Shown here: positions 18,992 to 43,265 of the stretch, piece after piece
Layout of the letters: each line of letters starts with the position of its first letter
Numbering within the stretch: the first letter of the stretch is position 1
NCBI GenBank assembly: GCA_003344405.1
Contig: NOWV01000174.1
Location: 124,001-167,265 of the forward strand
Reading direction: 5' to 3'
DNA from: Trichoplax sp. H2
Taxonomy: Eukaryota
DNA length: 43,265 bases
Translations under genes and position numbers: made by a program
Notes under the pieces: generated by a model
What the model was told of the DNA's origin: nothing
Seen by the model: only the letters and a program-made list of their open reading frames with translations
Database searches by the model: none

Positions 18992-20075
18992 TTATAGTGG
19001 TGACAATTCTTTAAATATAGTACTAAATGTCGGAAGAGAAGGTAACCGTTTCGAACTTGCTGTGCTATAATCTTTGGATAACTTTTTATTCGTTCTCTGA
19101 CTTCTAGTCATGCTAGTACTACCCGAGAATGTATACAAGTATGGATTAATGGATGAATTGAGGGGCAATACAAAGACAGCAATGAAAGGCAATGTATAGA
19201 TTTGAACTTCCGAATCGAGCATACTGCGCACCATAACAATATAGAAGGGCATCCAACAAGCTAAATTCGCTAATAATATTATTAACATCCTGCCAGCAAT
19301 TCGTTTATCATCTTCTCGAATATTACGACAATTTTCAACGGCCATTCTAGTACGCTGGATAGAGATAAACATTGCTAAGTATAATATACTAACAATTATC
19401 CATATTAAGACAGTGATAGCGATGGACGTTAAGATCCAAATACGAAAGAATGAATTATGAATATTCATAGGTAGGCAAACACTACTATATTGGTAGATAC
19501 GATCATCAGCTGATTTACCAAAGCCAAACATTAGCGGGAAAGCTACATAAGATATGCTAACTAGCCAGAAGAAAGTAACAATTGCGCTTGCCGACTTAAT
19601 AGTTAATCGTTTACCAGATAATGGGTAAACCACGCAAATATAGCGATCTATGGTGATCACAAACATCATTAAGACCGACATAATACTGGATACGCAGGTA
19701 AGAAAACATGCAAAGACACAAAATGGATGCCGTAACCAGAATTCAGAATATTGTGCGTAGTTATGGTGATAGATTTGATCGGCAACAGCAATAATGATAA
19801 GGTAAAAGCCAGTCAACAAATCGGTGAAGGCTAAGTTGCTAATAAGAAATGTCGGCACTAAGTGACGATGAAATTTACGACGCCATATCCAATGCATAAT
19901 TATGACCGACGTATTGCCAATAAGAGCTAAAATACCTACAATCCAAACAAAGATTTGTAACGATCTATGGGCTAATAAATTTTCACAAGTTGATAATTGC
20001 TCCTGATTGGGTATAGGTTTACATCTTTCCACAGTACCAGGTACAAGACAACATAAGTATTCGCGAGTAGATTGC
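18992..20075 (-). CDS. Terminal exon of the LGR: short type-C hinge and complete 7TM domain
   Basis: QSTREYLCCLVPGTVERCKPIPNQEQLSTCENLLAHRSLQIFVWIVGILALIGN; TM2 NLAFTDLLTGFYLIIIAVAD; TM3 SVLMMFVITIDRYICVVYP; ECL2 SSVCLP; TM6 NLACWMPF; TM7 LPLNSSINPYLY. The acceptor AG lies at 20077-20076, upstream of the ORF-track start. Confidence 0.95.
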
Positions 20076-23000
20076 CTAAAAGGAAGGGTCGAAATTTATT
20101 TGAAAAAGTTAATACACTCAACATTGTGGATAACCTTTAAAATTGCACCTATATGATGTAATAAATTCAGGGAAATTATGGATATCGTATCTAAGTGAAG
20201 CCCTGTTTGAGTAAATGTAGTTAAATATCAAAAGGTATCTGTTGTAGATAAATTTATTATATAAGTGAATGCGTGGTAATTTCTAATGAAATTAACTGCA
20301 ATAGCAAATTAATGTACTAAATTTTCTATAATAAAGAATGTTTGTGATAAATTTGAAGTAGGGATTTTAAATTGATTCCAAAAGATGAACAGCTAAAGCT
20401 GAAATTATAATTTCCATACGGTTATTGATTTCGTAAAATCTTTAAAATAAGAATACAGACAGTACTATAAATAGAATTATCCATATACGCGTATTTAGCT
20501 ATCATAGTAACATTTTTACAGTTCTAGAATAAGAATTAAAAAATAAAGTATCTAAGGTGTCAGTTTTACGCGATGCAATTGATTTCACTAATTTACAATA
20601 GGATAATTACGTACAAATTCTGTAGCCTAATTAATCCATAAAATGGCTCCGAAGCTAGGTCAACCAAAGGATTATTTTTTAATGACCTAGATATGAGATC
20701 CGGTGTTGTTAAATTTAGCAATTTATCTCATCAGCAAAACAAAATTTTTATCATCTAGACAAAGGAATTTGTAATTATGAATTATTGCGAACAATGTGAA
20801 GTCAATTAATGCTGCTAAACTTACAGTATTCTTAGTAAAGACATAGATGAAAAACAATTATGAGTAATAACCCGTACGTTATTTTCATCTAAGGTCCTAA
20901 AGCCCAACAGAAATCATGGTATTAACATTCGAGAATAAATCGAATATATATTTTAAATTCTTAAAAGACATAATAACGCTAATCTATTTGTCTTACAAAT
21001 TTTCAAGATACTGATAACCATTAAAGAAGGAACCACAAACATTAGATATCCTATTATGAGCCAGATTCCTATAACGGGTAGGTACCCAAAAGTAAATAAA
21101 TCAATCTATTCATTAACAATGAATTAATAGTATTAATTTACATTGTAACCTCGACTAGTTTCCTATTAATAAGATTTTAGCCTTAAATTCAATGGTTACT
21201 CGTATATCAAAATATTATAAACTAAGCATATGTCATTAGCTATGCAATCTACTAAAATCGAAAAACTTATTCCTCATTTTACTAATTCGATCAATTGAAT
21301 AAACTTACAAAATATGAATTCGATTAATATCTGATCGATTTTCATTATTAAAATACTCTATTTTATTTTTGGCTAGATGCCTAATGAAGAAAGTTTAATA
21401 ATTAATTTAAAGCTTTATTTAAAATCATTTTTATTGCAAGATTTGCGTAGATATATGGAATAGTTTTAGCGTATACTTACAGTTCTCGCAATCGATAATG
21501 CCTCATCAAGTGATAGGTCTGGAATGATTGAAGATCGTTACCGTTTAGGATTCTATAATTAATAAAACATGGTAAAATAATATGGTAAGAAAACAGGAAT
21601 CCAATCCATTTACAATTGCTCTATATTTTCAGCTTTAAATCTATGAAACAGAGGATGAATCACTTTGTTTTGAGGAAGTCTTGTAAATTATCAGTTAAAA
21701 ATATGAGTTTAATATCAGGTAATAAGAAAAGCAAATATCAATTGAAATAATAAATTTCAAAATTAAGAACTTATAAATTTCTTGGATTAAAATAAATACA
21801 GTTTCCAAGGGGCTTACAATGGTTACATGGCTTTTGAAATATGAATTTCTAATTTAAATTTACCGGTCAAAGATATTTTCTAGCTGCAATCTATGAGCCA
21901 GTTAATTAGAAAAAGGTATCCCATTTTGTTGGAAGAAAAATTTAAGGAAATATTAATACTTACAGTGATATCAATGATTCTCCTTGATTGACCAAAACTT
22001 CCGGCAAAAATTCTTGGATATTATTTCGACTCAAATCCCTAATCAAGTATTAATTGTCACTTAATACTTCAACGAAATACTTGCAAATAAGAAAAGATAT
22101 CAAATAAATCTCCTTATTTAAACTATATCTTAAATGCGATCAGCTAACACATCACTACATATGCAATACAAATAGATTAGCGGCTAATATTTGCTCTACC
22201 GCTATAAAAATGTTATTAACAGTTAAAAATTTAAAAAGTCTAATAATGCATATTTACAGAATTTTTAGGTTATGTAGCGGACGTATGAGTTCTTTAGCGG
22301 AGATTAAACTGAGATTGTTATCCGCTAAGTCTCTGTAATATTGGATAAATGAATTAATATGCCAACATCTTAACCTACAATGCTATAAATAAATTCAAAT
22401 TTGTAACAAGTAAGACCAACAAACAGCTCTTACAAAATTTGCAATTTTTTAAAATGCTTAAACATGTGATCATCAGGTGTAGTCATGTTGCTATCAGCTA
22501 AGCCCCTAATGTAGTATTAACAGAAATTAATTTAGTAATAAGTAAAAATTTGTGTAGGAAGATGCTTCCATACAATCTCTATAAAATCCAATCCTAAGAA
22601 ATGATAATTACTAACAAGGCCTTCAAATTGTTGAAATATCCTGAATGAACAATGTTATACCAATCTTCACCGAATATAACTTTAGTGTGACTGATATCTC
22701 TATTATTCAAATTGAAAAAATTATTTATTAGCTTAATCAAGACAAATGACTTTCATTTAAAAGTGCTCACTTAGAATAATATAGCTATCATTTTAAATTA
22801 GACACGTACAATTGCATGAGCCGTGATAAAATAGAATAGCATCGATAATCAATGGTAATCGCATTATTCCAGCTGAAATCTCTAAAATACATATAATAAT
22901 GTGCATAAGTTAGATTCAAAAGCCAGGACAGTATTCAAAGCGTATCTGTCACAGTAAAATTAATAGATGTATATAATTTGAATAACTATTTACCGTTACA

Positions 23001-26000
23001 AAATTAGAGGACTAGTATTTATCATTTTTATAGGTTATTAATATAGATAGACAGAGACATATATTTCGTCTATTAAAGAAGATTGAAAGCCCTTTCGTGC
23101 CATAAAAGCATTGTAAAACAGAAAGCTAGCATTTAGGCTTTTAGGCTGTTCGCTGTTATCATAAAATACGATGTAGATAATATAGATAAAGAATGGCGCA
23201 TATTTCATATCAGTAAAGAAATTATTAAACTACATAATTGAGCTATCTTTAGAGTATGTACTTTAACTTACAGCTTTGTTAAGACCAATAAATGACTAAG
23301 CAGGTGACATGGTAAATTCCATAGTCTATTCTTAGCTAAATTTCTGCATTATTTAAGGAACACATTACTCAAGTTATTTTGATTCTTCTAGTAAAAAGTT
23401 ATTGCTCAGTAAGCAACAAAATTCTGGTGATGAAATACAACAATGAACAAGATTTAAATTCTTAGCTTTATCTATAATTTAAAATTATTATGAAATACTA
23501 TTAGCAATAATAGTCTAATGACGAAGATTGCAAAGAGACAACTTGATCTATGTAACTCTTGATATAAGGAATTTCGAGAAAATTAAAATATGATTCCAAA
23601 CTGTATTTGCAATAAAATTCTTAAGTCAAAATCAAAGCTATAGTCAGTTAAATCTAAAGTACTAGACAATCTATCTAAATGTGAGACTTACAATTCGAAA
23701 AGGGGGAATATATTTTTGAATAAGCCATCTTCCAAATAGTCTAACTTATTTTCAGCTAGTTTTCTGATAGAGAGATAGCATATTATGATATAAGGATAAA
23801 TATTATTCAGGTAATATTATATGTAGCGGCTTAATAATTATCATCCAAACTGCTGGAGTATCCTACTTACAAAACTCTTAAAAATTTTAAATTACTAAAA
23901 GGTTTGGACTGGTTAAATTTAATATTATTGTTACTAAGGTCCCTATAATTTCAAGATGTGATAATAAAAGGACATTAGGGTGGGTACAAACACAATAACA
24001 TCGTAACTGATATAAATTATATAAACGATTAAATCGTAAATGAATTTTTCATCAATTTCACTAATCTCCTCACAATTCCCATAATGTTGGCATTTCCTGA
24101 TTGAATATTCCATTAATACTTTGCAAATCGTTATTATTCAGCAAGCTAATAAATAAAAATGTTATAAATTAGCATTAATGTGACTTGGCTTAAAATTATT
24201 TTGGGTTTTCGATCATATTGTTTTGCAAATAAACTCGAAATTAACAGATAATATCGATAGCAGATCGATATCAACCAATACTAGTATGCTAGTGCTACAA
24301 ATCTAAAATTTGTAAATACTGTAAAGTATTGTTGATTTGCCCTCCTCGAAGTCTACCTATAGTGCGACTCCAAATTCTGACGATCTACCATCGTCAGGAG
24401 GAAGGATACTATCTCTAGTCGCTCTTAAGGTACATTTTCATTATGAACTTTTTCAAGACAAACTGAGCCCAAACTTTATTGAAAATCAGTCAATTCATAG
24501 TAAACTGACAAAAAGATGAGTTATCGGCACCGAGACAATATTAGAAAACTATGTACTAATCTATTGAAAACATATCAAACGTCATAGATAAATTAATGCC
24601 ATTATATTCCTAGATAAGCAATCTTAAGGAAACTATATTACAGCAGCTATGCTAAAGCTACTCCGTAAAAACTAGTTCTACTAGAAGCTACGTCAAAGAT
24701 AAAATTAATATCAATATATTACTAGATAAGTAATGTTAAGGAACCTATTTTACAGCAGCTATGCTCAAGCTACTCTATAAAAATTAGTTCTACTTGAAGC
24801 TACTTACAGGGTATGTAATTTTGTCATTCCATCAGTTAGGTTTTCACCAAGAGTTAGTAATTTATTATTGGATAAATCCCTATAATGTATATAGATATTA
24901 ATAAAAAATGATTAGTTATTGTTTTCTTTATAACTAGTTACATTTAGACCGACTGTAGTGCTATCAAATTACAATTATATCAAATAATATGTAACTATAA
25001 TTTAATACATTAACGCAATCAAGCACGATTGCAATCTTTAGAGAAACAGCTTACAAAATTTTCAACTGCTTTAGGCCTTTAAATGTTCCAGTTTTTAACT
25101 CTCTAAGGGCATTATTACTTAAACGTCTGATATAAAAGGAAGAAAATTATATTAGCTTTAATTCATGGCTTATAAATATAATAATAATCTTCATTTTTAG
25201 TGTTAATAGGTGCTGCAAATGTAAAAGTTATAGGCATTTTAGGTTATAATAAATAATCCAGTCAGCAATTGCAACTAAAGTAAGATTGAACACTTTTGCT
25301 CGTGTTTGTTTATTTAAAAATTTTTTAGAATAGTATTAACTCTTTAAGATACAATATTTACAAAAAAATCATGCCTTTTAGAATTGATAAGCAATAATTA
25401 AACTCTAACTTTAAGTTGCAATAAGTACGTCATTGAAATAAAGATTAACCATTGGACGATTTATAATAAAGGTTTTAGGGAAGTTTATAAAAGACTTAAT
25501 TACTCTGATCTTTCGAACTTGACAGCTGCTATGCGAATGGGAGCCGCTAAGTTATTCACTAAGGTTAACAGTATAGCTTACATTTCTGTCAAGTTATTTA
25601 AAGTGTAGAATTGGTCTATTTCCAACTTCCGTAATCCATTATTTTGGATAAATCTTGTGTGTTTAAAGTAAAGATGTTTATAATCAGTAATTTCTTATAA
25701 AGAAGATGTAACGGTCTTACGTACATCACAATTGAAAACAAATTCGAAATTTATAAAACCTATTCTTGAAGGCTACATACAGATTTTTTAAATGAATACA
25801 GCGATCAAAAGTTTTCGGTTTAATACGTTCAATGGCATTATCATTTAAATTTCTATTTGAAATAAAAGCAGAAGAATCAAATTTATCAACGGTTACACAC
25901 TTAATTGAAGTAACTTGTGAGATATCTATTCTAAGCTTTCATTTTTAAGTTTTTATATTATTATTGAATGGATACTAACTTCTTTACTAGATCAATTTCG

Positions 26001-29000
26001 ATTTATTATTGTATAGCCAATATAACTAGTTACTTACAATTTTTCCAATCTTGAAAAGTTACAGATTTCTCCGTTAATAGATTTCAAGTTGTTCCGTGTG
26101 ATAATCCTAATAAAGATTCAGTACCAATAGTGCTTCTTAACTCAAATCGTTAGTTGGAATTGTTAACTTATCATACCATTTTATAGCTTAAAATGGATTA
26201 CAATTGTTTCACTTACAACTCTTTCAAAGATAATAAACCAGCAAATGCTTTATTGCTAATAATCCTCAATCGATTGCTACTTAAATCTCTACAATAATCA
26301 AAATGAGCTTATAACGTTACAATAGATCAAGTTGATGTAATTTTATCATGTTTCCTAGCAATCATCATTCCAGTAATTAAATTCTGCATTACAGTAGATG
26401 TTAAGGTAGTAACTTACAATTTCAGTAACGCTGATAAACCTAAAAAACTATTGTCCTGTATCTCACGCATCCTATTTCCTTCCAGGCTTCTGTGGGATAA
26501 TTATCAGCTAATAAGCTATCATTTTATATACTTATGCATAATAGTTGTTGAACGCTAGTATGCAAGCAGAATCATATATTTCAATTCATTTCTCTTTTTG
26601 AAATCATGCGAAATGAAAATCATGGTATTTGAATTCAATTTAGAATATAAGTGTGAAAGTTCATTTTAGACATCGTAAAATGGTAATATATGGTATATTT
26701 CTCTAGACCGATTATATAGTTATATATGGAGGGGCAGCATGCTTCTATTGCGACGGTAAATCATTGGCTTAGGAACAGTAAGCAAATAAATCCTGTGCGC
26801 ATTCGGTTCCGTTAGGTAAAACTGAGGGCTCTAACAAGTAACATTCTGATAACAGAACTGTACAAATTTGCCACTGCTAATATTTCCCTACTAAATTAGT
26901 TTTCAGGAAGGAGTTTTTTGCATACTTACGGTATAGATGTACAATAAAATTAATATGTTTATCCAATGATATAATGTATCAAAAAGAAATTAATTTATGA
27001 TCAAATATGATAGTAAGATTTACCCCAAATTATTCGTGAATTTAATACCAAGAAAAGGCTACAATATTAGACTGTCATTTGCGAAAGAAAAGTAAAATCT
27101 CTACCTGACATACGTCTTCTTAACAATCTAAGATATTAAATTTTTACTTTTATATATATAAGTTTAGGATAACTGCACGGCACGAAGTTGTCACGGTACG
27201 AACTACCGTGAAGAAATAGCTATCTAAATTTGGTTAATATAGTATAGTGATATTATATTACAACTAGTTACTTACAATAGGAGTTACTCTAATTATAAAT
27301 GTGTTACAGTAAATTTATTGCTGTGCTGTAATATGTGCTGAAATGATTCTGTGAATGGACATATTGTAGTCCGACTGTGAAAAACTAGTTAGTAGATGTT
27401 CTCACCCAAGTGTTATTATAAGNNNNNNNNNNNNNNNNNNNNCCCAAATTATTCGTGAATTTAATACCAAGAAAAGGCTACAATATTAGACTGTCATTTG
27501 CGAAAGAAAAGTAAAATCTCTACCTGACATACGTCTTCTTAACAATCTAATATATTAAATTTGTACTTATATATATATATATATATATATAAATTTAGGA
27601 TAACTGCACGGCACGAAGTATGCAATAGTAAATGGCTATCTTGACTTCGTTTTTAAACTGAAATAAACTCCGTAAATATAAATGCTTTAAAGGACAAAAA
27701 AAGACACAAGTGGAAATAGTTTTAGGGCACTAGGATTATTTTCTTATTACAGATAAAACATTTAGACTTTAAAATGAAATACTAAAGAATAACTATCTAT
27801 AAATGTAGAGCAAATACTCATAAGCTGGATTGCCCAAAGTTGCTTCAATAAAAATTAATTTAATAAATCTATCTCAATAAATTATTGCTGATGAAATGAC
27901 TGGCACTGCTTCTAATATTGAAAGATTTTGACTTGGTCGGTTGATATTTCGCTCAGCATTTAAAAATTATCAACTGTTACTGATCCATCTCAAGTTAGAA
28001 ATGACGCTATAAACCATCTGCGATAGAAGATACAGGTAAAAAATTTAAGGTATTTGCAATAGCTGGATAAGTTTCAACTTACAGTTCCGTTAAATTTTGT
28101 AAGAAGCTACAATCACTTGTTGGCAATCTATGTATTCGATTGTTTGAGAGCGATCTTATTTAGGATAAAGAGAAATTTTAGAAAGTGTTTGTGTAGACTA
28201 GTATAATTTTAGAGAAACTAAGAAAGCTTTTAGTCAATAAAGGTACTTACAAGGTTGTCAATGTAGGTAGTTTAGTAAAACATTTTACATTAAAATCTTG
28301 AATCTGATTATTGGAAAGCCGTCTAAATAGTTTTCCAGAAAATGTTTCTTATTATTTTGCTACAAATATTCATATTCGATTAAAATGTTAAGAATTGCAA
28401 ATTTAGATAATGTCTATTCTTGCATATTAAAGCTATTACAGTAGGAAACAGCTAAATTTTGTTATCCGACGCTATCATATTAACCCTGTAATATATATCA
28501 GCACTGTAAGAATCAGTTTATTTCGTAATATTTGACTGTATATTCCAAATTTGGTTAAAAACAGCCAGAAAATAGATTTTAATCTTCATCTTGTTGCGTG
28601 TTAGATAATAATACATTTAGTAAGAGGGAGCTGACTTTACATCATTTTACTAGCATATATAATATGCATTTTAAATTGATCAGGTGCAAATTTGAAAAGC
28701 TAATGCACATGTGTTACAGTGTTAAATACTGTATTACAGTAGAAATAACTATGTTAGGATAATTCTGTTAGACTATCCTTATTTAGTTAACTTCTAATTT
28801 GGATATACTGTATTTTAATATAGCACTGACTTTTTATGACAGTGACACTTATACACATACTGAAATTATAATAGTTATAATAGGGAATGCAAATCATCTG
28901 CTTACAGTTCGAATCATTGTGATTGTAATTTACTTATGATAGACTGTAAATTATCATGGAAATGTTCCGTGATAGGACATATCGTAATCTGACTATTCTG

Positions 29001-32000
29001 TATTAGTTATTACATGTCTATGTTCGTAAATACTGTTGTCTGCATTAAGAGAGCAGTAGCTAAAATTAATATCTAATTCAGTAAATGATTCTAATGTTAA
29101 TTGTATTAACTATGACTCATGAACTATTGAGGAATAGTATATAAATGCAGTATATCGTGAAATAAAGAAGAATTGTCCAACTTAGTGTTTAACGTAAAAT
29201 ACGAGGCGTTTAAGTCTGTGTGTAGTCTGCTAGTAGAGCAAAAGTGCTCGTGNNNNNNNNNNNNNNNNNNNNAACCCTGTAATATATATCAGCACTGTAA
29301 GAATCATTTATTTCGTAATATTTGGCTGTATATTCCAAATTTGGTTAAAAATAGCCAGAAAATAGATTTTAATCTTCATCTTGTTGCGTGTTAGATAGTA
29401 ATACATTTAGTAAGAGGGAGCTGACTTTACATCATTTTACTAGCATATATAATATGCATTTTAAATTGATCAGGTGCAAATTTGAGAATCTAATGCACAT
29501 GCCTATTAAGCTGTAATTTATCTAATCTGATGAAGCACCGTCTCCTATATTTTTCTAAGCTAACCATTGTTTTAAATGTAGATAAGATCGAATAATTACT
29601 ATCTTATAGCCAACTATCAAATTGAATCAGAGTCTAAAATACGGTTAATTTTATGATATTTGAATATGGTGTTCGTACCATTGTGACTGATTATTATCGT
29701 ATAAATCAGTATTATTAATGTTTATCTTCACATATAGTGCCAATTCGTAATTAGTATATCATTGTAATGGTTACTGTATAACTTCAAAATCATATGATTA
29801 ACTGAATCGGGTAGTAAAAAATCCGATAGCTAAGTAATGATAGAATGTTGTATGTTATGGTTCATGTATTTTATGTTCAGCTCCAAACCAAAAATTCAAG
29901 TACTTTCATAAGAAACTTTTCATAATCATACAAACGCCGACGAATCGAATAGATTCTATAATTATGTCTACATCTTATCACTAGAATATAACGAGGTTTA
30001 ATCAGCAAAGAAATTATATTTTTAGTAATCTTACAAAGTCGATAAACTGTGTAAGCCCTCAAAAAAAGTATCTTTTAAGGTAGTCAATTTATTCCTGGAT
30101 AGATCCCTAATGGTAAGTAAAAATTAGACTTAATATTAATACGTAACAAATCCAGGGTAAATTAAAAATCTAAAAGATAACCAAACTGTTTCAAATATTA
30201 AAGTCAAATTATTCTTCTATCCATGCTACTACAGTTCACAATATATCTCGAACTAAAACGAAGGCAATTATATTCGACTATTTTAAGCAGCCAACATTTT
30301 TCTATCGTTGCCGATGAATTAGCAACGTTATTAGATAATATCGATTAAATATTCTGTAGTTAAAGCCATTAATTGGCATTAAATTTCAGTAGATTGGATA
30401 GAAAATTAGAATATTTGTATTTAAAAGCATTTAGCATACAATCATAAATTTGTAAAAAATATTCAACAACCGCTAAGTTTGTAGTCTTACAATGTCGTTA
30501 GTTTTGGCAAATAATAGAATTGCTCCTGCTGCAATGTGCTCAATTGATTGGATGATAATATCCTTGATAATGACCGAAAATGGATCTTGTTAACTGAGCT
30601 AAAAGTTGAATTTTAAAACAATTAATAGATCAAATTTCAATCTTACAATGAATGAAGACTATCTAAACCAAAAAAGGCATTCTTATCCATGTAATTGATC
30701 CGATTGGAGAATAATTCCCTAAATGGATATGAAACCTTGTTATTCATTCGCGTTGTAGCCATATTGTACTCGTATGATGCAAATTAAGGTATTTCAATTA
30801 TTGGGTAAAACAGGTTCGTTATCAGTATACAACGTTAGAGTTAATCTAAATTCTCAGTGTTTCATATCTTGTTTGCTATCTCGATATTACTCCAGTCTAA
30901 GATATCTGTTCGACATTAGTTTTTTGCACAAACGGGTAGGATAACTATATGATCATCATACGGTATACATGCAAACCACTAGAGATTGGCTACGGTGTTA
31001 CATTCGTTGGGACAACAATTATAAAAATGTAAATACTAATATATCTTTTACTAAGAATGAATGGAAAAAATATCGGCAGAACATTTTCTTTTATACTTAC
31101 AATCTTTCAAGTGAGGATAATTCTTTAAATATATGTCCTTCTAGTTTTTCAATATAATTGTGAGGCAAGAAACTAAGAAATAAATGCAATAATTAAATAA
31201 GCTCTTTTCGAGATCAATGTAATTTGTTTTCTTCACATAGGCAGCAAAAAACGAAAACCTTAATCACAACGGATCGTAATTACTCTACTGTAATTGTCGT
31301 TGTGATGAAAAGATCAAACTATAGACAACCACATTTAATATTTATAGAAATTAATGATGATCAGATATTTCGATAATGAAAGATTTATAGTAAATCATCA
31401 TTAAAGACAATAGCTTAAAAATGATTCCAGAACAATTTGGCTAGATGATCAAGTTCCAAAGTAATAGCTCTATTTGCAATATAAGAATTGCCTGTATTTC
31501 AGATTTGCAAGTCTGGGATAATGGAGTACTTTACAGGTGTTTTCGAACTGAATTCAATCAGTGAATAAGTAAACTAACTAAATGATATTTTCCAGCCTAA
31601 GCTGAGTGTAACTTATCCTTCGATATTTTGTTCAATAACAGTTGCATGTACATTCGAAGTCAGCACTGTACTGTATATAAAGCTTGGTCTAAGTGATAAT
31701 ATTGTCGTCAGGCATGTAAAAACTAAATTTCAGATCGAAGAAATTATCCTTAACTTGATTTATTTTTTAATTAAAGTAGTGTAACGTTGCAACCAATTAT
31801 TGCATTGCACATTAAATTGTTTGTTTTTTTAAGAAATAATTATCGATGAGATTATCGACACTATTATTCAAATAAAATTTTAACTGAATACCAACTTATT
31901 TTGATTACGTGTACTTACAGCGTATTTAGTTGAGATAATCCTGTAAATGTCTCGTTTTTAATTTCCGTTAGATAATTGTTGCTAAGAATTCTTATTAAAG

Positions 32001-35000
32001 AAGATATTTCTTACGAAAGTGATAGAATAAATTAAATAACATAGTCCTTAATAACTGTCCTCTAGGATCTTACAAAATTGATAGTTTCGTCATATTGGCA
32101 AAATTGAATTTTTCTAGTTCTTTGATTTCGTTTGTGGTTAGTTCTCTGTTATAGCAAAGAATTGTATACTTTAACTAATGTTTATAGATAATGTAGAACA
32201 CATCTATCTAAAAGCTTGGTACCACTACTGAATCTCGCTTATGGACTAAAGAGTATATAAACTTACAATGTTCTGATAGCTCCTGCTTGCCCTTTTAAAG
32301 CCATCAGGCTAGTTAAATTATTCAAAGAAACCTTTCTAGAAAGTTTAATGCCATATATATATATATGAATTTTATGCGCAGTTAGTAAAGTATAAGCTAA
32401 AACTGACATCACACATCGATATAAATTAGCTATTTTTACAAATTCAGTAAGCCTGACAAGCCATTTAAAAATCCTTCGCCAATTTCTCCAATTCGATTAG
32501 CATCTAAATGCCTTTAAAATTGATCAATTGGAACAAATGGTAACTATTTAATTAAATAATGTACCCATGTATGGTAATGTTATTAATTTTTTTTCCGTAT
32601 TTCTCAAACTAACAGAAAATTCAATTGATGAAGATCTTCAAATAAATTGTCTGGTAAATATTGAATCTGGTTGTCTTGTAAATCTCTGTAACAGAATTTC
32701 GGATCAGAATGATGCTAATTATGGTGGCAAAAAATAATCAATCTATATTGTTTCTTGGAATGCTACTTGTATTGATTAAAATCTCGATTAATGAATAGCT
32801 ATTGCAACTGTGCTCATTAAAGTCTATATTGTAGTATTTAGAGTTTTTTACAATATTACTAAATTTGTTCATGAAACTTTTCTTAACAGAGCATAGGACA
32901 AGGATCCGGTTATTATTTTTCAATAATTTGCTATTTCATATACGTCACGGTACGAATCACCGTAAAGAGTAAATGATTAAATTTAGTGGTAAACATTTAT
33001 ATATAGAGAAAACTAATAATGACTTACAGTAAGAACTACGATAGTTATTATTTTATTACAGTAAATTATACTGTACTGTAGCAAGAGTTCTTATACGGTA
33101 ACTAATGNNNNNNNNNNNNNNNNNNNNATCTATGTTAGGATAATTCTGTTGGCCTATCCTTATTTAGTTAACTTCTAATTTGGATATACTGTGTTTTAAT
33201 ATAGCACTGACTTTTTATCACAGTGACACTTATACACATACTGAAATTAATAGTTATAATAGGGAATGCAAATCATCTACTTACAGTTCGAATCATTGTG
33301 ATTGTAACTTACTTATGGTAGATTGTAAGTTATCGAGGAAATGTTCCGTGATAGGACATATCGTAATCTGACTATTCTGTATTAGTCATTACATGTCTAT
33401 GTTCGTAAATACTGTTGTCTGCATTAAGGAAGCAATAGCTGTAATTAATATCTAATTCAGTAAATGATTCCAAAGTTAATCGTACTAACTATGACTCATG
33501 AACTATTGAGGAATAGTATATAAATGCAGTATATCGTGTAATAAATAGAATTCTCAAACTTAGTGTTTAACGTAAAATACGAGTCGTTTAAGTTTTCGTG
33601 TAGTCTGCTAGTAGAGCAAAAGTGTTTGTGATAGTGCAGATATCGTTCCTTGATACGTGGTTCAAGGAATTGACTTATTGATCGTACATTACGTTATCTT
33701 GTAGCAAAGCTGTTTTGTGACAGATATAGAAATATCGCAATGAAATTAATTTTATGCTACGGACATGAATTGTTGTAGCTAGTCGTATGTCAATATCACG
33801 GTACGAACCGCCGTAAAGAGTAAATGATTAAATTTAGTGGTAAACATTTATATATAGAGAAAACTAATAATGACTTACAGTAAGAACTACGATAGTTATT
33901 ATTTTATTACAGTAAATTATACTGTACTGTAGCAAGAGTTCTTATACGGTAACTAATGTTAATTGATTATAATGTTATGCCATGTAACGTTTGTGATGAA
34001 TATCCTGAAGATATTCAGTTACAGATGATACTATAAATAATTCTGAGTATGAACATACTATAATCTAATTATCTAGAATCGTTCAGTACATGTCTAAGAT
34101 TATGAATAATTTCTGTATTAATTTAGCTATACAATATGAACTAAATTTCAAGAACTACTGTTATGACTGATACATGATAGCTGCTGCTGAAGAGTATTTA
34201 AGCTCGGCAAATAGTTGAATAAAGAAGAGTTCTATAGTTGTTTAACGTAGAAGCAAAGGCGTCTAAATTCTTGTGAGATAGTTAAGGGATACTGAATTCC
34301 CAAGACTATAGTGATTTAGAGATTTGCTATACGTTATCTTTGTCACGAAGCTGGTTTGTGACTGTATATTATCAAATGTTAAATTTGATATTTTGGCTTC
34401 AATAATGTATTCTTTGAATTGATACAGCTTTCAGACATGAGGAGTTTAAAAGATCAAAATATGAATAAATTGTTAAAGTTATGGACCCTGTGAAATGTGG
34501 AAATAAAATTTCTAATATAATTCTAGTACATGTGTATTCTAAAGGAGTTTAGGTTATGCCGCTAATTAATCAATAACTATTTTCTATCAACGATCTGATT
34601 AACAATAATTTTTAAAATACATATGAGAATCTGAATATTTTATCAATCCGTAAAAGGTCTTGACTTAGTCCTATAAATCCTGCAGCGCTATCGCATTAAT
34701 CAAAGTTCTAAATATATTTTAGTAAACGATTTTAAATACGCTATTACTATCTTACAATGTTAAAAGCGACGATAATCCCTTGAAGTGTAGAGGTTCGACA
34801 GACTTTAAACGATTACTTAGCAAGAACCTAAGAAGCATTAAAGTGAAGAATGACGCGGTCAATTAAGTGCATTACTATTTTTGTAAATAATGCGCTATTA
34901 ATTCTTGGCAAGAACCTTCTGATAGTTAGAAGTAGACATCATTAATGTAAGCTAATGCTATTCAAAATGAATCTAAGCAGTGCAGTAAATTAAAAAGTAG

Positions 35001-38000
35001 GTATGAATGCTAGAAAAAGCTATGAAACTTCCAGATGAAATGCTAAGGATTCTTGGTAAGAATATAATTTATATGGTAAAATAAATAGCCTGTATGACTG
35101 ATCAATAGGCCGGCTAAAACATCAAATGAAGTTTTAATTAAATACATTTAGGTAAGCAACTATCCCAGACTATGAAGTAAGCAATACATAAACATGTGCG
35201 TATATCAAATAAAAGCAATATCCTATAGTAAAATATAGATATAACTGATTGAAATTGATACAATAACGTTGCATAGAATGATAAAATTGCTTCAAATACG
35301 AATCGGTTGGCAATTTCATTATTGGAGTGTTACAGTGTTATTACTGTATTACAGTAGAAATATCAATGTTAGGATAATTCTGTTAGACTATCCTTATTTA
35401 GTTAACTTCTAATTTGGATATACTGTGTTTTAATATAGCACTGACTTTTTTGACAGTGACACTTATACACATACTGAAATTAATAGTTATAGTAGGAAAT
35501 GCAAATCATCTACTTACAGTTCGAATCATTGTAATTGTAATTTACTTATGGTAGATTGTAAGTTATCATGGAAATGTTCCGTGATAGGACATATCGTAAT
35601 CTGACTATTCTGTATTAGTCATTATATGTCTATGTTCGTAAATACTGTTGTCTGCATTAAGGGAGCAGTAGCTAAAATTAATATCTAATTCAGTAAATGA
35701 TTCCAATGTTAATTGTATTAACTATGACCCTGAACTATTTAGGAATAGTATATAAATGCAGTATATCAAGAAATAAAGTAAATTCTCAAACTTAGTGTTT
35801 AACGTAAAATACGAGGCGTTTAAGTCTTTGTGTAGACTGCTATTAGAGCAAAAGTGTTTGTGATAGTGCAGATATCGTTCCTTGATACGTGGTTCAAGGA
35901 ATTGACTTATTGATCGTACATTACGTTATCTTGTTGCAAAGCTGTTTTGTGGCATGGAGTAAGAAGTAATGCCTCAACTACATTATGTGCATATTTCGAA
36001 ATATCAATTATAATAGGCTATATCTTCATCTTAGCTTCATAACTAAAGGAGCAGAACTGAATTTTGAAAAAGCTAATTAGTTTTTAAAAACTTACAAGAA
36101 ATGTAGCTGGGTTAAATTAGCGAATTGATAATCAGCTAATTTAGAAATTCTGTTATATCCTAAATGTCTATAAAAATTGTAAAATTTTAAAGATCAGTTT
36201 TCGTCAATAAGTTATTTAATAGAAAAGATAAAAAAAATTCGTTTATTATTGCCATACATGTAGAAAAATTTACTATAATTAATTCAAGAACTTACAACAA
36301 ATTCAGCTGTTTAAGATATCTAAATAAGCTAGGATCCAGTTCTTCAATCGTATTTCTTTCTAGTGATCTATTTATATTAATAATATTAATGCAGATATAT
36401 CATTACTTTTTATGCTACTACTAGTTTCTCTTCTTATCGGTACATAAATGATGATTTACAATGTTGAGAGTTGAGTCAAATTGTTAAAGGAATCTGGAGC
36501 TATACGCTGAATTTTGTTGGAGCCAGCATCGCTGTAATATAGGGTAAGATAGTAAAAGTTAAAATTAACCATTTCATTAATTTAAACTATAATGATAGAA
36601 TAAGATTAATCAAGCGGTTGAACACTTGGATATGAAAAAGGCTTAATGAAACACGAGGAATCATGTCCAAGCGACTACAAAAGTCCAATGGCAGTTGCCA
36701 TGAAAATATTATTTTAGAAACATAAGTGTATACGAAAATGCTTTACTGATACAGTAGGAGTATTAGCCTACAAAGTCCTCAGTCCAAAGAATGCTTTCAA
36801 ATTTTCCGGCTTTAGTTCTTTGATCAAATTATCTTTTAACAAACTAGTGTGTAATTCAACAGAAATAATTAAATTAATATGATGCCTTGTTACTTCCCGA
36901 TGATTATTCTTTAGAAAATAGAATTAAAGTATCCAAATATATCATATGGTCATGAAAGTGTACATAATCTATCTATGAATTTGATTCAATAATTCTAGGG
37001 CACACAGAATCAATACAATATTGCTATCACTCTTGATATCCTTTTCTGTATTAATGTACGGACATTGAATATTATTTTGTTAAGTTATCCCTTCAAAACT
37101 GACTGAAACTCTTTTCGTTATGAAGGTTACCCTAATCGCCTACGTGTATTATAGATGATATACAAAGCGAATCCCACATGCAAGATATACAGCTGTATTT
37201 TAAGTAGATACGTGAATGGCTGGCAGATATTTTTTATATGCATTTGTGACGATATATATCATGCAAGATTTTGTAACAAAATCGAACGACAAGGAGAAAA
37301 TATGCTTACAGCGTAAACTATTATCGTTATCATTCTATAAAGCGCCAACGGTAAATTTAAAATGTTAAATTTAACAACTTACTAAATTTTCCAAATTGAT
37401 AAATCGACTTTTGGTACGTTGATTAGTTCATGTAATGAACAATCTATTTTTTCCGAATCACATTTACATACAGCCGGGCAAGTGATATTAACTGTGGATG
37501 AAGCAAAAATAGTTGTTAAGAGTACATTAAAACCTATCAAATTAATCTGATATTCCTTACCGCACATTTCAATATAATTGTATATTGAACATCTGCGAAC
37601 GACTGGATCAGTATTTATAAACAATGGTGACGAAAAGCAACAATTTACTTCTTTACAAATTTTTTTCACTGGATAACCTATCAAATAATTTATTGTAGGA
37701 CAATTTTCAAAATAAATCAATTATTATGACAACTCTGACCGATCTAGTTGCTTACTCAATAACAATCTAGTCTATTTAAAGTTATGGAACAGCTAAAAAT
37801 ATTTGTTACCCAGATCTTGAGACTCATTTACCCGTCGGTATTGCAACCATTTATAAGCTGGTTCATTGATAAAGAAAATAGGAAAATTAATTACTAGACG
37901 TCTTAGCTGGAATGAATTATGATTATATATTTTTTATTAATGAACAAAATCTATTAATATGTAAAATTGATTTATTACAACTTTTTATATATACCGCAAT

Positions 38001-38111
38001 ATTTTTCGTCTGAGCCATCATGACAATCATTCTTGTAATCGCACCAGTCTGTATAAGAAATACAAGCACCATCATCACACTCTAACAGCGCCTTAGGTAT
38101 ATCAGGTGCAC
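18992..38111 (-). CDS. Giant LDLa + LRR-containing rhodopsin-family GPCR (type C LGR, RXFP/GRL101-like); at least 40 coding exons, ~1340 aa, 5' end unresolved
   Basis: In transcript order: LDLa exon 38111-37995, Cys-rich exon 37677-37561, LRRNT exon 37491-37383, 36 LRR exons between 36843 and 20615, hinge+7TM exon 20075-18992. All junctions are GT-AG with compatible phases. No start/signal-peptide exon was identified. Confidence 0.88.
20615..36843 (-). CDS. Array of 36 single-LRR cassette exons (31 x 72 nt, 2 x 75, 2 x 69, 1 x 84), all phase 2-2
   Basis: Exons: 20615-20686, 20997-21068, 21309-21380, 21481-21552, 21964-22038, 22258-22332, 22434-22505, 22616-22699, 22810-22881, 23272-23343, 23692-23763, 23871-23942, 24074-24145, 24808-24879, 25055-25126, 25582-25653, 25781-25852, 26038-26106, 26217-26288, 26418-26489, 28083-28154, 28251-28322, 30035-30106, 30491-30562, 30647-30718, 31101-31172, 31919-31990, 32074-32145, 32267-32335, 32440-32511, 32614-32685, 34756-34827, 36096-36167, 36296-36367, 36460-36531, 36772-36843. 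Each is stop-free and fits xLxxNxLxxLxxxxFxxLxxLxxL, e.g. DLSSNRLRIISNKAFAGLLSLKEL and DLSRNKLTTLKDTFFEGLHSLSTL. Confidence 0.92.
24604..24803. repeat. Intronic imperfect tandem duplication (~88-bp unit, period ~112)
   Basis: CTAGATAAGCAATCTTAAGGAAACTATATTACAGCAGCTATGCTAAAGCTACTCCGTAAAAACTAGTTCTACTAGAAGCTAC is repeated with scattered mismatches at 24716-24803. Confidence 0.85.
27189..27422 (+). mobile_element. Family B-related (B') 5' fragment running into an assembly gap
   Basis: Starts TGTCACGGTACGAACTACCGTGAAG exactly where the duplicated flank diverges, with patchy similarity to B (ACTTACA, TTACAGTAAATT, CTGTxCTGTA). Confidence 0.68.
27568..27591. repeat. (TA)12 microsatellite
   Basis: Read directly; shorter TA runs at ~659-672, ~8509-8523 and ~32354-32366. 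Confidence 0.9.
28482..29501. repeat. Direct duplication of flank around gap 2 (28482-28711 vs 29273-29501); probably two haplotypes
   Basis: ~230-bp near-identical copies. The second starts immediately after the N run at 29253-29272. Confidence 0.85.
28712..29252 (+). mobile_element. Family A solo-LTR-like copy, 3' end lost in an assembly gap
   Basis: Begins TGTTACAGTGTTAAATACTGTATTACAGTAGAAAT directly after ACATG and is colinear with 35328-35860 up to the N run. Confidence 0.82.
32943..33107 (+). mobile_element. Family B 5' fragment running into an assembly gap
   Basis: CGTCACGGTACGAATCACCGTAAAGAG... is near-identical to 33794-33958. Confidence 0.72.
33108..33127. other. Assembly gap (20 N placeholder); others at 27423-27442 and 29253-29272
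   Basis: N runs of identical length, each abutting an LTR-like copy. Confidence 0.99.
33128..33722 (+). mobile_element. Family A solo-LTR-like copy, 5' end lost in an assembly gap
   Basis: Colinear with the 35328 copy. Ends GCTGTTTTGTGACA and is followed by GATAT. Confidence 0.82.
33794..34363 (+). mobile_element. ~570-bp solo-LTR-like element, family B (diverged relative of A)
   Basis: Starts TATCACGGTACGAACC and ends ACGTTATCTTTGTCACGAAGCTGGTTTGTGACT (family A end: ACGTTATCTTGTAGCAAAGCTGTTTTGTGACA). Shares TACATGTCTA, a TATTTAA...AATAAAGAAGA block and TGTTTAACGTA with family A. Confidence 0.72.
35328..35954 (+). mobile_element. Complete 627-bp solo-LTR-like element, family A
   Basis: Starts TGTTACAG and ends TTGTGGCA. 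Perfect 5-bp TSD TGGAG (35323-35327 and 35955-35959). Internal TATATAAA (35749-35756) followed by AATAAA (35772-35777). Three more copies are in the window. Confidence 0.85.
37383..37491 (-). CDS. LRR N-terminal cap (LRRNT) exon of the LGR
   Basis: VNITCPAVCKCDSEKIDCSLHELINVPKVDLSIWKI matches CPxxCxC...xDC..L..VP. Acceptor is TCCACAG, donor is GTAAGT, phase 1 to 2. Confidence 0.9.
37561..37677 (-). CDS. Cys-rich 39-codon linker exon between LDLa and LRRNT
   Basis: GATAG|GYPVKKICKEVNCCFSSPLFINTDPVVRRCSIYNYIEMC|GTAAGG; 117 nt, phase 1-1, followed by a 69-nt intron. Confidence 0.65.
37995..38111 (-). CDS. LDL-receptor class A (LDLa) module exon of the LGR
   Basis: CCTTTCAG|APDIPKALLECDDGACISYTDWCDYKNDCHDGSDEKYC|GTATAT; 117 nt, phase 1-1, with the canonical CD...DCxDGSDE..C calcium-binding signature. 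It is too short to appear in the ORF track. Confidence 0.9.
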
Positions 38112-42777: not shown

Positions 42778-43265
42778 TGTGACAGAGTTATATACTGTAT
42801 TAGAGTAGAATTATCTATGTTTGGATAATTCTGTTAGACTATCCTTATTTAGTTAACTTCTAATTTGGATATACTGTGTTTTAATATAGCACTGACTTTT
42901 TATCACAGTGACACTTATACACATACTGAAATTAATAGTTATAATAAGGAATGCAAATCATCTACTTACAGTTCGAATCATTGCGATTGTAACTTACTTA
43001 TGGTAGATTGTAAGTTATCGTGGAAATGTTCCGTGATAGGACATATCGTAATCTGACTATTCTGTATTAGTCATTACATGTCTATGTTCGTAAATACTGT
43101 TGTCTGCATTAAGGAAGCAATAGCTGTAATTAATATCTAATTCAGTAAATGATTCCAAAGTTAATCGTACTAACTATGACTCATGAACTATTGAGGAATA
43201 GTATATAAATGCAGTATATCGTGTAATAAATGGAATTCTCAAACTTAGTGTTTAACGTAAAATAC
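42778..43265 (+). mobile_element. Family A solo-LTR-like copy, truncated by the window end
   Basis: Begins TGTGACAGAGTTATATACTGTATTAGAGTAGAA after GATAT. Nearly identical to the 33128 copy (about 7 mismatches counted by eye over ~450 bp). Confidence 0.82.

Follow-up and report, generated by a model that had tools for sequence, protein, structure and literature searches.

On the minus strand of the window, that is, the whole stretch of 43,265 nucleotides that was analysed, positions 18992-38111 are occupied by one gene rather than two. This expressed Trichoplax gene, of which at least 42 exons lie in the window, is very probably an LGR belonging to the large placozoan-specific expansion that has already been published. 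In the order of the product it encodes one LDLa module, a Cys-rich linker, an LRRNT cap, 37 LRRs with a separate exon for each, a short hinge with four cysteines, and a rhodopsin-type 7TM domain.

Gene Organization

Altogether 42 exons are read on the minus strand between 18992 and 38111. Upon splice-site reading, 41 of 41 introns were found to be of the GT..AG type and all 42 exons to have an AG acceptor; the spliced frame extends over 4151 nt, corresponding to 1383 codons, and is devoid of in-frame stops. The succession of LDLa, Cys linker, LRRNT, long LRR array, short hinge, and 7TM that had been read in the original prediction was borne out, and the coordinates given there are exact, with the stop codon ending at 18992 and the LDLa exon beginning at 38111, after a polypyrimidine tract and CAG. 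The 367-aa ORF of the last exon matched the Pfam family 7tm_1 with 101.7 bits (6.3e-29; cut-off 30.5), and the 7TM switches DRY, CWxP, and NPxxY are all intact in this exon. The LDLa ORF matched Ldl_recept_a with 33.7 bits (cut-off 24.1) over profile positions 9-37 of 37, and the same exon is matched by LDL-A modules of the PDB. LRR_8 was matched in the predicted protein, while the match to LRRNT is weak (15.6 bits, under the cut-off of 25.8).

The exons are listed below in the order of the product; (-) denotes the minus strand. All LRR exons are based on the exon scan and on splice sites and frame; further evidence is given line by line. RNA joints are written as the two borders joined, "X4 length" stands for the length of the X4 contig, and "tblastn" for a tblastn match of the public gene model TRIADDRAFT_51796.

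37995..38111 (-) LDLa exon, 117 nt, starting with 2 bases of a split codon; Cys 2-6 and D/D/D/E calcium-cage motif; Pfam, PDB, acceptor read, 3' border given by RNA joint 37857/37995 in X11, X12, and X5
37810..37857 (-) linker exon, 48 nt; RNA joints 37857/37995 and 37677/37810, splice sites
37561..37677 (-) Cys-rich linker exon, 117 nt; RNA joints 37677/37810 and 37491/37561, contig pieces 37561-37675 in X11, X12, and X5
37383..37491 (-) LRRNT exon, 109 nt, with C-x3-C-x-C-x6-C cap; weak Pfam match, RNA joints 37491/37561 and 36843/37383
36772..36843 (-) LRR exon 1, 72 nt; RNA joints at both borders
36460..36531 (-) LRR exon 2, 72 nt; RNA joints at both borders
36296..36367 (-) LRR exon 3, 72 nt; RNA joints at both borders
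36096..36167 (-) LRR exon 4, 72 nt; RNA joints at both borders
34756..34827 (-) LRR exon 5, 72 nt; RNA joints 34827/36096 and 32685/34756
32614..32685 (-) LRR exon 6, 72 nt; RNA joints at both borders
32440..32511 (-) LRR exon 7, 72 nt; RNA joint 32511/32614
32267..32335 (-) LRR exon 8, 69 nt, atypical repeat; RNA joint 32145/32267 with a 69-letter side (X4, X5)
32074..32145 (-) LRR exon 9, 72 nt; RNA joint 32145/32267
31919..31990 (-) LRR exon 10, 72 nt; X4 length
31101..31172 (-) LRR exon 11, 72 nt; X4 length
30647..30718 (-) LRR exon 12, 72 nt; X4 length
30491..30562 (-) LRR exon 13, 72 nt; RNA joint 30106/30491
30035..30106 (-) LRR exon 14, 72 nt; RNA joint 30106/30491
28251..28322 (-) LRR exon 15, 72 nt; X4 length
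28083..28154 (-) LRR exon 16, 72 nt; X4 length
26418..26489 (-) LRR exon 17, 72 nt; tblastn, TRIADDRAFT_51796 beginning inside this exon
26217..26288 (-) LRR exon 18, 72 nt; tblastn
26038..26106 (-) LRR exon 19, 69 nt; tblastn
25781..25852 (-) LRR exon 20, 72 nt; tblastn
25582..25653 (-) LRR exon 21, 72 nt; X4 length, no tblastn match
25055..25126 (-) LRR exon 22, 72 nt; tblastn
24808..24879 (-) LRR exon 23, 72 nt; tblastn
24074..24145 (-) LRR exon 24, 72 nt; tblastn
23871..23942 (-) LRR exon 25, 72 nt; X4 length, no tblastn match
23692..23763 (-) LRR exon 26, 72 nt; tblastn
23272..23343 (-) LRR exon 27, 72 nt; tblastn
22810..22881 (-) LRR exon 28, 72 nt; X4 length, no tblastn match
22616..22699 (-) LRR exon 29, 84 nt, irregular 28-residue repeat; tblastn
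22434..22505 (-) LRR exon 30, 72 nt, without the conserved Asn; tblastn
22258..22332 (-) LRR exon 31, 75 nt; X4 length, no tblastn match
21964..22038 (-) LRR exon 32, 75 nt; tblastn
21481..21552 (-) LRR exon 33, 72 nt; tblastn
21309..21380 (-) LRR exon 34, 72 nt; tblastn
20997..21068 (-) LRR exon 35, 72 nt; X4 length, no tblastn match
20825..20896 (-) LRR exon 36, 72 nt; RNA joint 20686/20825 in four of four runs
20615..20686 (-) LRR exon 37, 72 nt; RNA joints 20686/20825 and 20075/20615 in four of four runs
18992..20075 (-) last exon with four-Cys hinge, 7TM, C-terminal tail of ~45 residues, and stop codon; translation, Pfam, alignment with RXFP1 of the PDB, motifs, and RNA (pieces 18960-20074 in X4 and X5, 19158-20074 in X11 and X12)

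The N-terminus is incomplete, and it is possible that further domains are encoded upstream. Neither the first LDLa cysteine nor a start codon or a signal peptide was found within the window, and examination of 38112-43265 for a first exon yielded no convincing candidate. One candidate begins with the ATG at 38156 and would be spliced, over a 26-nt "intron", to the acceptor at 38112, whereby a Cys codon would arise; it was rejected for want of a signal peptide and of contig cover over 38112-38302. A signal-peptide-like ORF at 38283-38334 was likewise rejected as first exon, as it is not covered by any contig. The 30-nt loose end of the X12 contig at 38613 has no match in the window, and none of 20 candidate public proteins contains the linker plus LRRNT part, which is weak evidence.

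The LRR Array

The array is composed of 37 LRR exons, 32 of which measure 72 nt, two 69 nt, two 75 nt, and one 84 nt. All exon borders are in phase 2 and every length is divisible by 3; the encoded repeats of ~24 residues each are arranged in tandem over an LRR span of 892 residues. About 36 LRRs had been expected from the letters; the long array is real, but the count has to be raised to 37. The additional repeat is probably the one encoded by exon 32267-32335 (69 nt, atypical), whose inclusion is evident in RNA contigs from both X4 and X5. Another candidate of 78 nt, at 24299-24376, was rejected: with it, the length of the X4 contig would no longer be matched exactly.

A simple search for LRR motifs over continuous frames returned no match, since phase-2 introns interrupt each of the repeats; the LRR exons were found by exon-aware scans. 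As a chance control, a strict pattern was defined, consisting of AG, 69, 72, or 75 nt that are open in phase 2 and contain an LRR motif, and GT. Within the gene region it matched 29 times on the minus strand and never on the plus strand; the remaining 23.9 kb gave no match on either of its strands, nor did any of 20 shuffles. The pairwise identity of the 72-nt LRR exons is 42% on average and 60% at most. Judged by their sequences, the repeats are old and distinct.

Transcript Evidence and Integrity of the Gene

RNA contigs were available from four runs (X4, X5, X11, and X12) out of three studies; the label of X4 and X5 as RNA is a guess, although their spliced contigs argue for RNA. Fourteen of the 15 joints listed are of the GT..AG type, lie on the minus strand and on predicted exon borders, and occur in three or four of the four runs. 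Another 39 joints exist beyond those listed; at least 14 of the 41 introns are evident as joints, and the other 27 introns are supported by the length of one contig. In X4 record 13 (4155 nt), 2432 nt precede the 7TM exon, which is the sum of 33 LRR exons (34827..20615; 2388 nt) and a 44-nt portion of LRR exon 4; the contig spans LRR4 to the 3' UTR, with a length that is exact for every intervening exon. LRR exons are joined to the LDLa exon in X12 record 12 and in X5 record 27, and an X5 contig of 2819 nt extends beyond the 7TM exon by ~1680 nt in the upstream direction.

The RNA contigs, including the 4155-nt contig with the length expected if 33 LRR exons are included, are the reason for assuming a single gene. 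This was also the original prediction, and the split at a gap that would have spoken against it is contradicted. It is highly improbable that an upstream secreted or membrane-bound LDLa-LRR protein and a shorter downstream LGR were taken for one gene across an assembly gap, even if TRIADDRAFT_51796 begins at LRR17, three N gaps (27423-27442, 29253-29272, and 33108-33127) are found inside the array, and the frame would be closed after LRR7 by the intron retained in X11 and X12 contigs. The gap at 33108 is skipped by the RNA joint 32685/34756 in all four runs, and from the exact summed exon length of the X4 contig it follows that all three gap-bearing introns are crossed; the X12 and X5 contigs connect the LDLa exon with LRR exons, and the frame is continuous. 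The chances are equally slim that the array is an artefact, its repeat number having been raised by scaffolding duplications at the gaps, or that the gene is a decaying pseudogene. Duplicated stretches of 137-195 nt (families D4, D5, and D7; 97-99% identity) do indeed flank each gap, and a repeat of ~500 nt is present three times, in introns. However, the duplicated stretches are intronic, and because the 72-nt exons are mutually not more than 60% identical, the size of the array is not inflated by the N gaps or by the duplications beside them. The 1383 codons without a stop, the canonical splice sites, the spliced transcripts in four runs, and the conservation of the last exon at 85% identity in the contigs of a relative likewise speak against artefact and decay.

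Slightly more credit, albeit still little, is given to the LRR exons being used as cassettes, in which case the main products would be shorter receptors with a subset of the LRRs or a truncated, secreted LDLa-LRR1-7 protein, and the 37-LRR form would be minor. With LRR exons of the same phase and of lengths that are multiples of 3 nt, skipping would preserve the frame; rare variants are lost in contigs, which cannot reveal rare isoforms, and most of the existing joints are outside the 15 listed. Moreover, the 104-nt intron 32336-32439, located directly upstream of LRR exon 8, is kept in the main contigs of X11 and X12. The retained intron brings about a stop codon immediately after LRR7, and the dominant assembled form of these two runs would therefore not encode the receptor. 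On the other side, no exon-skipping joint is among the 15 listed, the X4 contig contains, by its length, all 33 LRR exons, and no skip is seen in the 2819-nt X5 contig either. A single gene with the full array is the preferred reading.

Placement within the LGR Family

The LRR array, the Cys-rich hinge, and the 7TM domain, which together characterize an LGR, are contained in one polypeptide according to both the open frame and the RNA contigs. The 7TM domain is of the LGR type; its ten best PDB matches include RXFP1, TSHR, LHCGR, and FSHR (109-121 bits), with the next receptor class reaching 55 bits at most. The best solved match is RXFP1 (chain 7tmw_R; 121.2 bits, 5.5e-34), the hinge being aligned over the C..CKP..ENLLA stretch, and the lead of RXFP1 over TSHR (116.4 bits) is small. 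The named matches among 20 HMMER hits that were looked up are 11 from Trichoplax (38-45% identity) and three from bilaterians (31-38%). In the tree, 17 placozoan rows are separated from 14 bilaterian GRL101-like rows with a support of 100/100. The hinge motif is common to the gene and 13 rows of Trichoplax paralogues, and the cysteine frame of the hinge, CC-x8-C-x(10-12)-C, is common to the gene and the GRL101-like receptors. An LRR span comparable to the 892 residues of the gene is found in the paralogue RDD37287 (at least 825 residues), and that of nine bilaterian GRL101-like rows amounts to ~48-170 residues.

For T. adhaerens, 46 LGRs are reported in the review by Hauser, Koch and Grimmelikhuijzen 2022 (PMC9545775); 41 of them form a lineage-specific set there, marked by a hinge of its own and by "an unusually high number" of LRRs. 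Tadh-LGR-15 is stated to have 34 LRRs and type C LGRs about 7-9 (taken as 7-10 in the comparison with the gene), and section 7 of the same review mentions LDL domains for type C LGRs only (PMC9545775). By its LRR number, its hinge motif, and its position in the placozoan clade, the gene falls into the Trichoplax-specific group. The novelty implied in the original prediction is, consequently, not upheld; according to this review, long-LRR Trichoplax LGRs are already in print, including the one with 34 LRRs, and the kind of receptor is known (PMC9545775).

With the other Trichoplax-specific LGRs the gene shares the rhodopsin-type 7TM domain (11 named paralogue clusters), the hinge motif, and the very long LRR array, but it differs by the LDLa module at its N-terminus and by the Cys-rich linker. 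LDLa was detected in none of ten Trichoplax paralogue models scanned, several of which are partial or start within the LRR array. The best matches outside the placozoans, with a 7TM identity of 31-38%, are GRL101-like receptors (type C2) of molluscs, echinoderms, hemichordates, and mites. Multiple LDLa modules are taken as a mark of GRL101. LDLa, LRRs, and 7TM are present in these receptors along with the common cysteine frame of the hinge, whereas their scanned models show one to nine matched LDLa stretches, have the short LRR spans given above, and form the separate, fully supported clade; the recovered part of the gene has one LDLa, a count in which the 5' exon(s) are missing. Toll-like receptors, which consist of a single transmembrane helix and a cytoplasmic TIR domain besides their ectodomain, also have an LRRNT cap that is followed, outside the cell, by a long series of typical 24-residue LRRs. 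The likeness is confined to the ectodomain, as the gene encodes seven helices instead, and no Pfam match to a TIR domain was obtained in it.

RXFP1 and RXFP2 (type C1) resemble the gene in that a single LDLa at the N-terminus is followed by linker, LRRs, short hinge, and 7TM domain; they are unlike it in that the gene has 37 LRRs and is without GDxxGWxxxF behind the LDLa. In RXFP1/2, GDxxGWxxxF located C-terminally of the LDLa is described as the activation (tethered-agonist) motif (bioRxiv 10.1101/2021.06.06.446989). Because this pattern is absent from the 1383-codon model, the gene is not a relaxin receptor in the narrow sense. Of the relaxin-receptor type that had been proposed, there remain the LDLa, the domain order, and a hinge that can be aligned with RXFP1, while the absent motif and the closest relatives, which are Trichoplax paralogues and not RXFPs, point elsewhere. 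The type-C hinge that had been assigned agrees with the RXFP1 alignment and with the GRL101-like cysteine frame, but the review credits the Trichoplax group with "its own" hinge (PMC9545775).

Proposed Function

By analogy with other LGRs, the long LRR solenoid would serve as the ligand-binding surface. Binding would be relayed via the hinge to the 7TM domain, possibly with the aid of the N-terminal LDLa and the linker, as in relaxin receptors, and the 7TM domain would then activate a heterotrimeric G protein. The full ring or superhelix and the very different ligand put forward in the original prediction are conjectural. It may be guessed that the ligand is an extracellular protein. Because the lineage-specific expansion is so large, endogenous factors and external molecules derived from food or microbes are about equally open as ligands.

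That the receptor acts as a sensor of environmental or microbial patterns, in which a TLR-like LRR ectodomain is combined with G-protein signalling, and does not bind an endogenous hormone, is conceivable, albeit rather unlikely. In favour of such a sensor, the 41 lineage-specific paralogues by far outnumber the twelve confirmed preprohormones given in the review (PMC9545775), and the paralogues are merely 38-46% identical, even in the 7TM domain; furthermore, placozoans are reported to be without canonical TLRs, and their CTLD-bearing GPCRs have been proposed as recognition receptors (PMC6321704). Against it, the LGRs with known ligands are stated to bind endogenous proteins (PMC9545775), and the LDLa module and the type-C-like hinge of the gene indicate the relaxin/GRL101 lineage.

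Even more tentative is the extension of this idea to the placozoan long-LRR LGRs as a whole, according to which they would be pattern-recognition or food sensors that arose from the relaxin/GRL101 lineage and combine a solenoid of TLR size or larger with a G-protein-coupled output, the ectodomain forming a spiral past the closed ring. If so, LRR sensing would be coupled directly to G proteins in an animal without canonical TLRs, the N-terminal LDLa would mark the origin of the sensor family in the relaxin/GRL101 receptor lineage, and the spiral of 37 repeats would offer a binding surface that has no counterpart among LGRs with known ligands. Within the placozoan expansion of long-LRR LGRs, one member at least appears to have kept an LDLa module and a GRL101-type hinge, and the expansion would therefore be tied to the type-C lineage. 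The question of what ~40 such LGRs bind, and why they are maintained in an animal that has no nerves and few cell types, has already been raised in the literature.

The Public Gene Model

Automatic annotation had been expected to fragment the gene, and this is what is seen in TRIADDRAFT_51796, a name that was not found in the literature searched. This model of 749 aa starts inside LRR17, omits exons, and aligns to residues 521-1383 of the 1383-codon model with five gaps totalling 114 residues. In corrected form its length would rise to 1383 aa or more, LDLa module and 37 LRRs included. Over the last exon, the gene and TRIADDRAFT_51796 are 100% identical.

Gene Structure and Domain Organization

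The last exon of the receptor gene corresponds to an ORF at 18992–20095 on the minus strand of the AT-rich, eukaryotic window (G+C content about 28–39%). Its open frame of 367 residues scores 101.7 bits with the Pfam family 7tm_1 and is 100% identical, across 98% of its length, to TRIADDRAFT_51796, the public Trichoplax adhaerens model of the same gene. An LRR motif search on continuous frames found no LRRs, because each repeat is an exon of its own. For the finding of LRR exons, stop-to-stop fragments were listed and then scanned for an open frame in phase 2 preceded by AG and followed by GT; this exon-aware scan yielded 37 LRR exons.

Exons upstream of the 7TM exon, in order of transcription
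37995–38111, minus strand: LDLa exon (Ldl_recept_a, 33.7 bits; Pfam cut-off 24.1)
37810–37857, minus strand: short linker exon, 48 nt
37561–37677, minus strand: Cys-rich linker exon
37383–37491, minus strand: LRRNT exon
Within 20615–36843, minus strand: 37 LRR exons (32 of 72 nt, two of 69 nt, two of 75 nt, one of 84 nt)

Spliced by coordinates, the 42 exons form a single open frame of 1383 codons, with AG at all acceptors and GT at 41/41 donors, mostly as GTAAG. The LRR consensus is the typical 24-residue xLxxNxIxxLxxxxFxxLxxLxxL, and the DRY, CWxP and NPxxY motifs of the 7TM domain are all intact. The LDLa exon is also similar to solved LDL-A modules and encodes the calcium-cage acidic residues; the ectodomain contains 16 N-glycosylation sequons. 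Over the common exons, TRIADDRAFT_51796 and the window differ at nine residues (LRR exons 24074–24145 and 23692–23763), the last exon being identical; the window may represent a different strain or assembly. The original prediction of such a receptor with about 36 LRRs is borne out in its domain order, with an improved gene model and the count raised to 37 LRR exons.

The array is neither a chance pattern nor, most likely, a product of assembly. A strict LRR-exon pattern has 29 matches on the strand of the gene. The opposite strand, both strands of the remaining 23.9 kb in the window and all 20 shuffled sequences are free of matches. Three gaps of 20 N lie within the array, all of them intronic, as are the duplicated sequences at their flanks.

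Gaps and duplicated flanks within the LRR array
27423–27442: gap; flanks 27024–27160 and 27443–27579
29253–29272: gap; flanks 28517–28711 and 29307–29501
33108–33127: gap; flanks 32945–33107 and 33796–33958

These flanks, of 137–195 nt and duplicated at 97–99% identity, look like unresolved overlap from scaffolding. Since the duplications are intronic and the 72-nt LRR exons are pairwise at most 60% identical (mean 42%), the LRR count is not inflated.

Transcript Evidence

Logan contigs from four sequencing runs of three studies (X4, X5, X11 and X12) were aligned to 18960–38950. X11 and X12 are recorded as RNA-seq, X4 and X5 were taken as RNA by guess, and the organism code of the former pair differs from that of the latter. 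Among the 15 joints listed (of 54), all but one are bounded by CT..AC as read on the plus strand, hence by GT..AG in the direction of the gene. These 14 coincide with predicted exon borders, within an ambiguity of 1-2 nt, and are found in three or four of the four runs. Included are the joints of the LDLa exon to the linker, linker to LRRNT, LRRNT to LRR1 and LRR1 through LRR7, as well as LRR8-LRR9, LRR13-LRR14, LRR36-LRR37 and LRR37 to the 7TM exon.

The original prediction would fall with two separate genes, or with transcripts limited to a fixed exon subset. In record 13 of X4, a contig of 4155 nt, the 7TM exon starts at position 2433-2434, so that 2432 nt precede it. Between 34827 and 20615 lie 33 LRR exons with a summed length of 2388 nt, and the contig extends 44 nt into LRR exon 4 (46 letters, two ambiguous), which gives 2432 nt exactly. 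Record 13 therefore includes every predicted exon on its path and crosses all three gap-bearing introns. LRR exons are joined to the LDLa exon in X12 record 12 and X5 record 27. As far as contigs can show, the outcome is one full-length transcript. A 78-nt candidate exon at 24299–24376 was rejected, being excluded by the exact length of X4 record 13.

The 69-nt intron 37492–37560, between linker and LRRNT, is in frame and stop-free, and its retention would add 23 residues; it is spliced out in all four runs. The 104-nt intron 32336–32439 is kept in the X11 and X12 main contigs and spliced out in X4 and X5. Its retention puts a TAA immediately after LRR7. The explanation could be random-primed libraries that captured unspliced RNA, intron detention, or a genuine isoform that is truncated.

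At the 5' end, the contigs extend beyond the start of the LDLa exon by 78, 177 and 264 nt. By contig depth in bins, known exons alone are covered in 37636–38302, and X5 and X11 have no contig cover in 38303–38950. A scan of 38112–43265 for an exon with Met and signal peptide ending in phase 1 gave no credible candidate. The LDLa Pfam match is without the first cysteine, which would fit a split codon (x+GT) at the start of the LDLa exon. The 5' end of the gene is missing from the model, and more N-terminal domains are conceivable.

Relationship to Other LGRs

A HMMER search against 1.84 billion representatives returned 5385 matches at E ≤ 0.001, of which 20 of the best were looked up. Eleven of these 20 are proteins of T. 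adhaerens or Trichoplax sp. H2 (38–45% identity), those of the latter being annotated as GRL101-like, and three are bilaterian (scallop, clam and hemichordate; 31–38% identity). The other six include a pair, P0022 and P0170, with 85% identity, probably an orthologue from another placozoan. A separate search contributed two further T. adhaerens paralogues. P0024 (TRIADDRAFT_51798), a paralogue with 42% identity, has a locus number adjoining TRIADDRAFT_51796 on the same 13.26-Mb scaffold, which suggests a local LGR gene cluster just outside the window. In some LGR relatives, namely P0036 and P0175 (TRIADDRAFT_60495 and RDD45091) and P0006 (Ptychodera), the region C-terminal to the 7TM domain gives weak matches to protein kinases (20-23 bits, below the Pfam cut-offs), which could point to a GPCR-kinase fusion or to fused gene models.

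The hinge carries the same motif in 13/13 Trichoplax paralogue rows of the alignment, and its cysteine frame CC-x8-C-x(10-12)-C is also found in most bilaterian GRL101-like rows. The best solved match is the RXFP1 structure sequence 7tmw_R (121.2 bits, hinge aligned), with TSHR close behind (116.4 bits). A maximum-likelihood tree was built from the hinge and 7TM of 31 rows, rooted at the midpoint only and without type A or B references; in it, 17 placozoan rows including the present gene are split from 14 bilaterian GRL101-like rows with support of 100/100. LRR spans, measured with an HMM built from the gene's own repeats, are 892 residues in this gene, at least 825 in RDD37287 (partial) and 621 in RDD37320, compared with about 48–170 in nine GRL101-like rows from bilaterians. 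A long array is thus characteristic of the placozoan clade and no peculiarity of the present gene. No LDLa was found in the 10 Trichoplax paralogue models scanned, several of which are marked as partial or begin within the LRR array. No public protein with the linker and LRRNT part was found among 20 candidates, which weighs little.

Excerpts of a review count 46 LGRs in T. adhaerens, of which two belong to type A, three to type C and no member to type B, while 41 are specific to the lineage, having a hinge of their own and exceptionally high LRR numbers; they ascribe 34 LRRs to Tadh-LGR-15; the same excerpts hold no LDLa on a long-LRR Trichoplax LGR (Hauser, Koch and Grimmelikhuijzen 2022, PMC9545775). 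Placozoan LGRs had earlier been placed near type C1 and GRL101, according to excerpts of Roch and Sherwood (2014, PMC4079206), the only literature found on placozoan GRL101. TRIADDRAFT_51796 was not found by name in the literature searched. As a kind, the gene is already described.

Putative Mechanism and Shape of the Solenoid

By analogy with LGR biology, as excerpted from PMC9545775 and the RXFP papers, the LRR solenoid would capture the ligand, the hinge would pass this on to the 7TM domain, and the latter would activate a G protein; the LDLa module may modulate signalling. The motif GDxxGWxxxF is described, in the excerpted text, as an RXFP-specific tethered agonist (bioRxiv 10.1101/2021.06.06.446989). 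It is absent from the spliced protein model, and RXFP-like activation is therefore a lead rather than a finding. The original interpretation holds in part: the single gene stands; the assignment to the relaxin-receptor type lacks this motif, and the receptor is not new in kind. In TLR ectodomains, about 26 LRRs are enough to form a closed ring. By that measure, a run of 37 typical repeats would need either to wind into a spiral or to be interrupted at repeats 8, 19 and 29-32, which are irregular.

Other Elements in the Window

Exon fragments of neighbouring genes are found outside the receptor gene, and there is no second LGR within the window.

Neighbouring-gene exon fragments and copies of the repeat family
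5554–6576, plus strand: REST-corepressor helical region, Myb/SANT domain, weak GATA finger
10667–10960, minus strand: PPP5 TPR region (protein phosphatase 5)
15203–16881, plus strand: glycosyltransferase family 43, 125.9 bits
28749–29252, 33130–33630 and 35364–35862: intronic copies of a repeat of about 500 nt
43057–43173: ORF copy of this repeat, upstream of the gene

The repeat family has a conserved 38-residue open frame without Pfam match, and its contig depth from the RNA runs is very high, up to about 1236. The fifteenth listed joint, 29233 to 35844 (TA..AT, very high depth), connects two of the intronic copies. The family probably represents a mobile element that is transcribed and present in multiple copies. 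A further intronic segment, 24579–24803, is a tandem duplication of a 112-nt unit in two copies with 86% matches.
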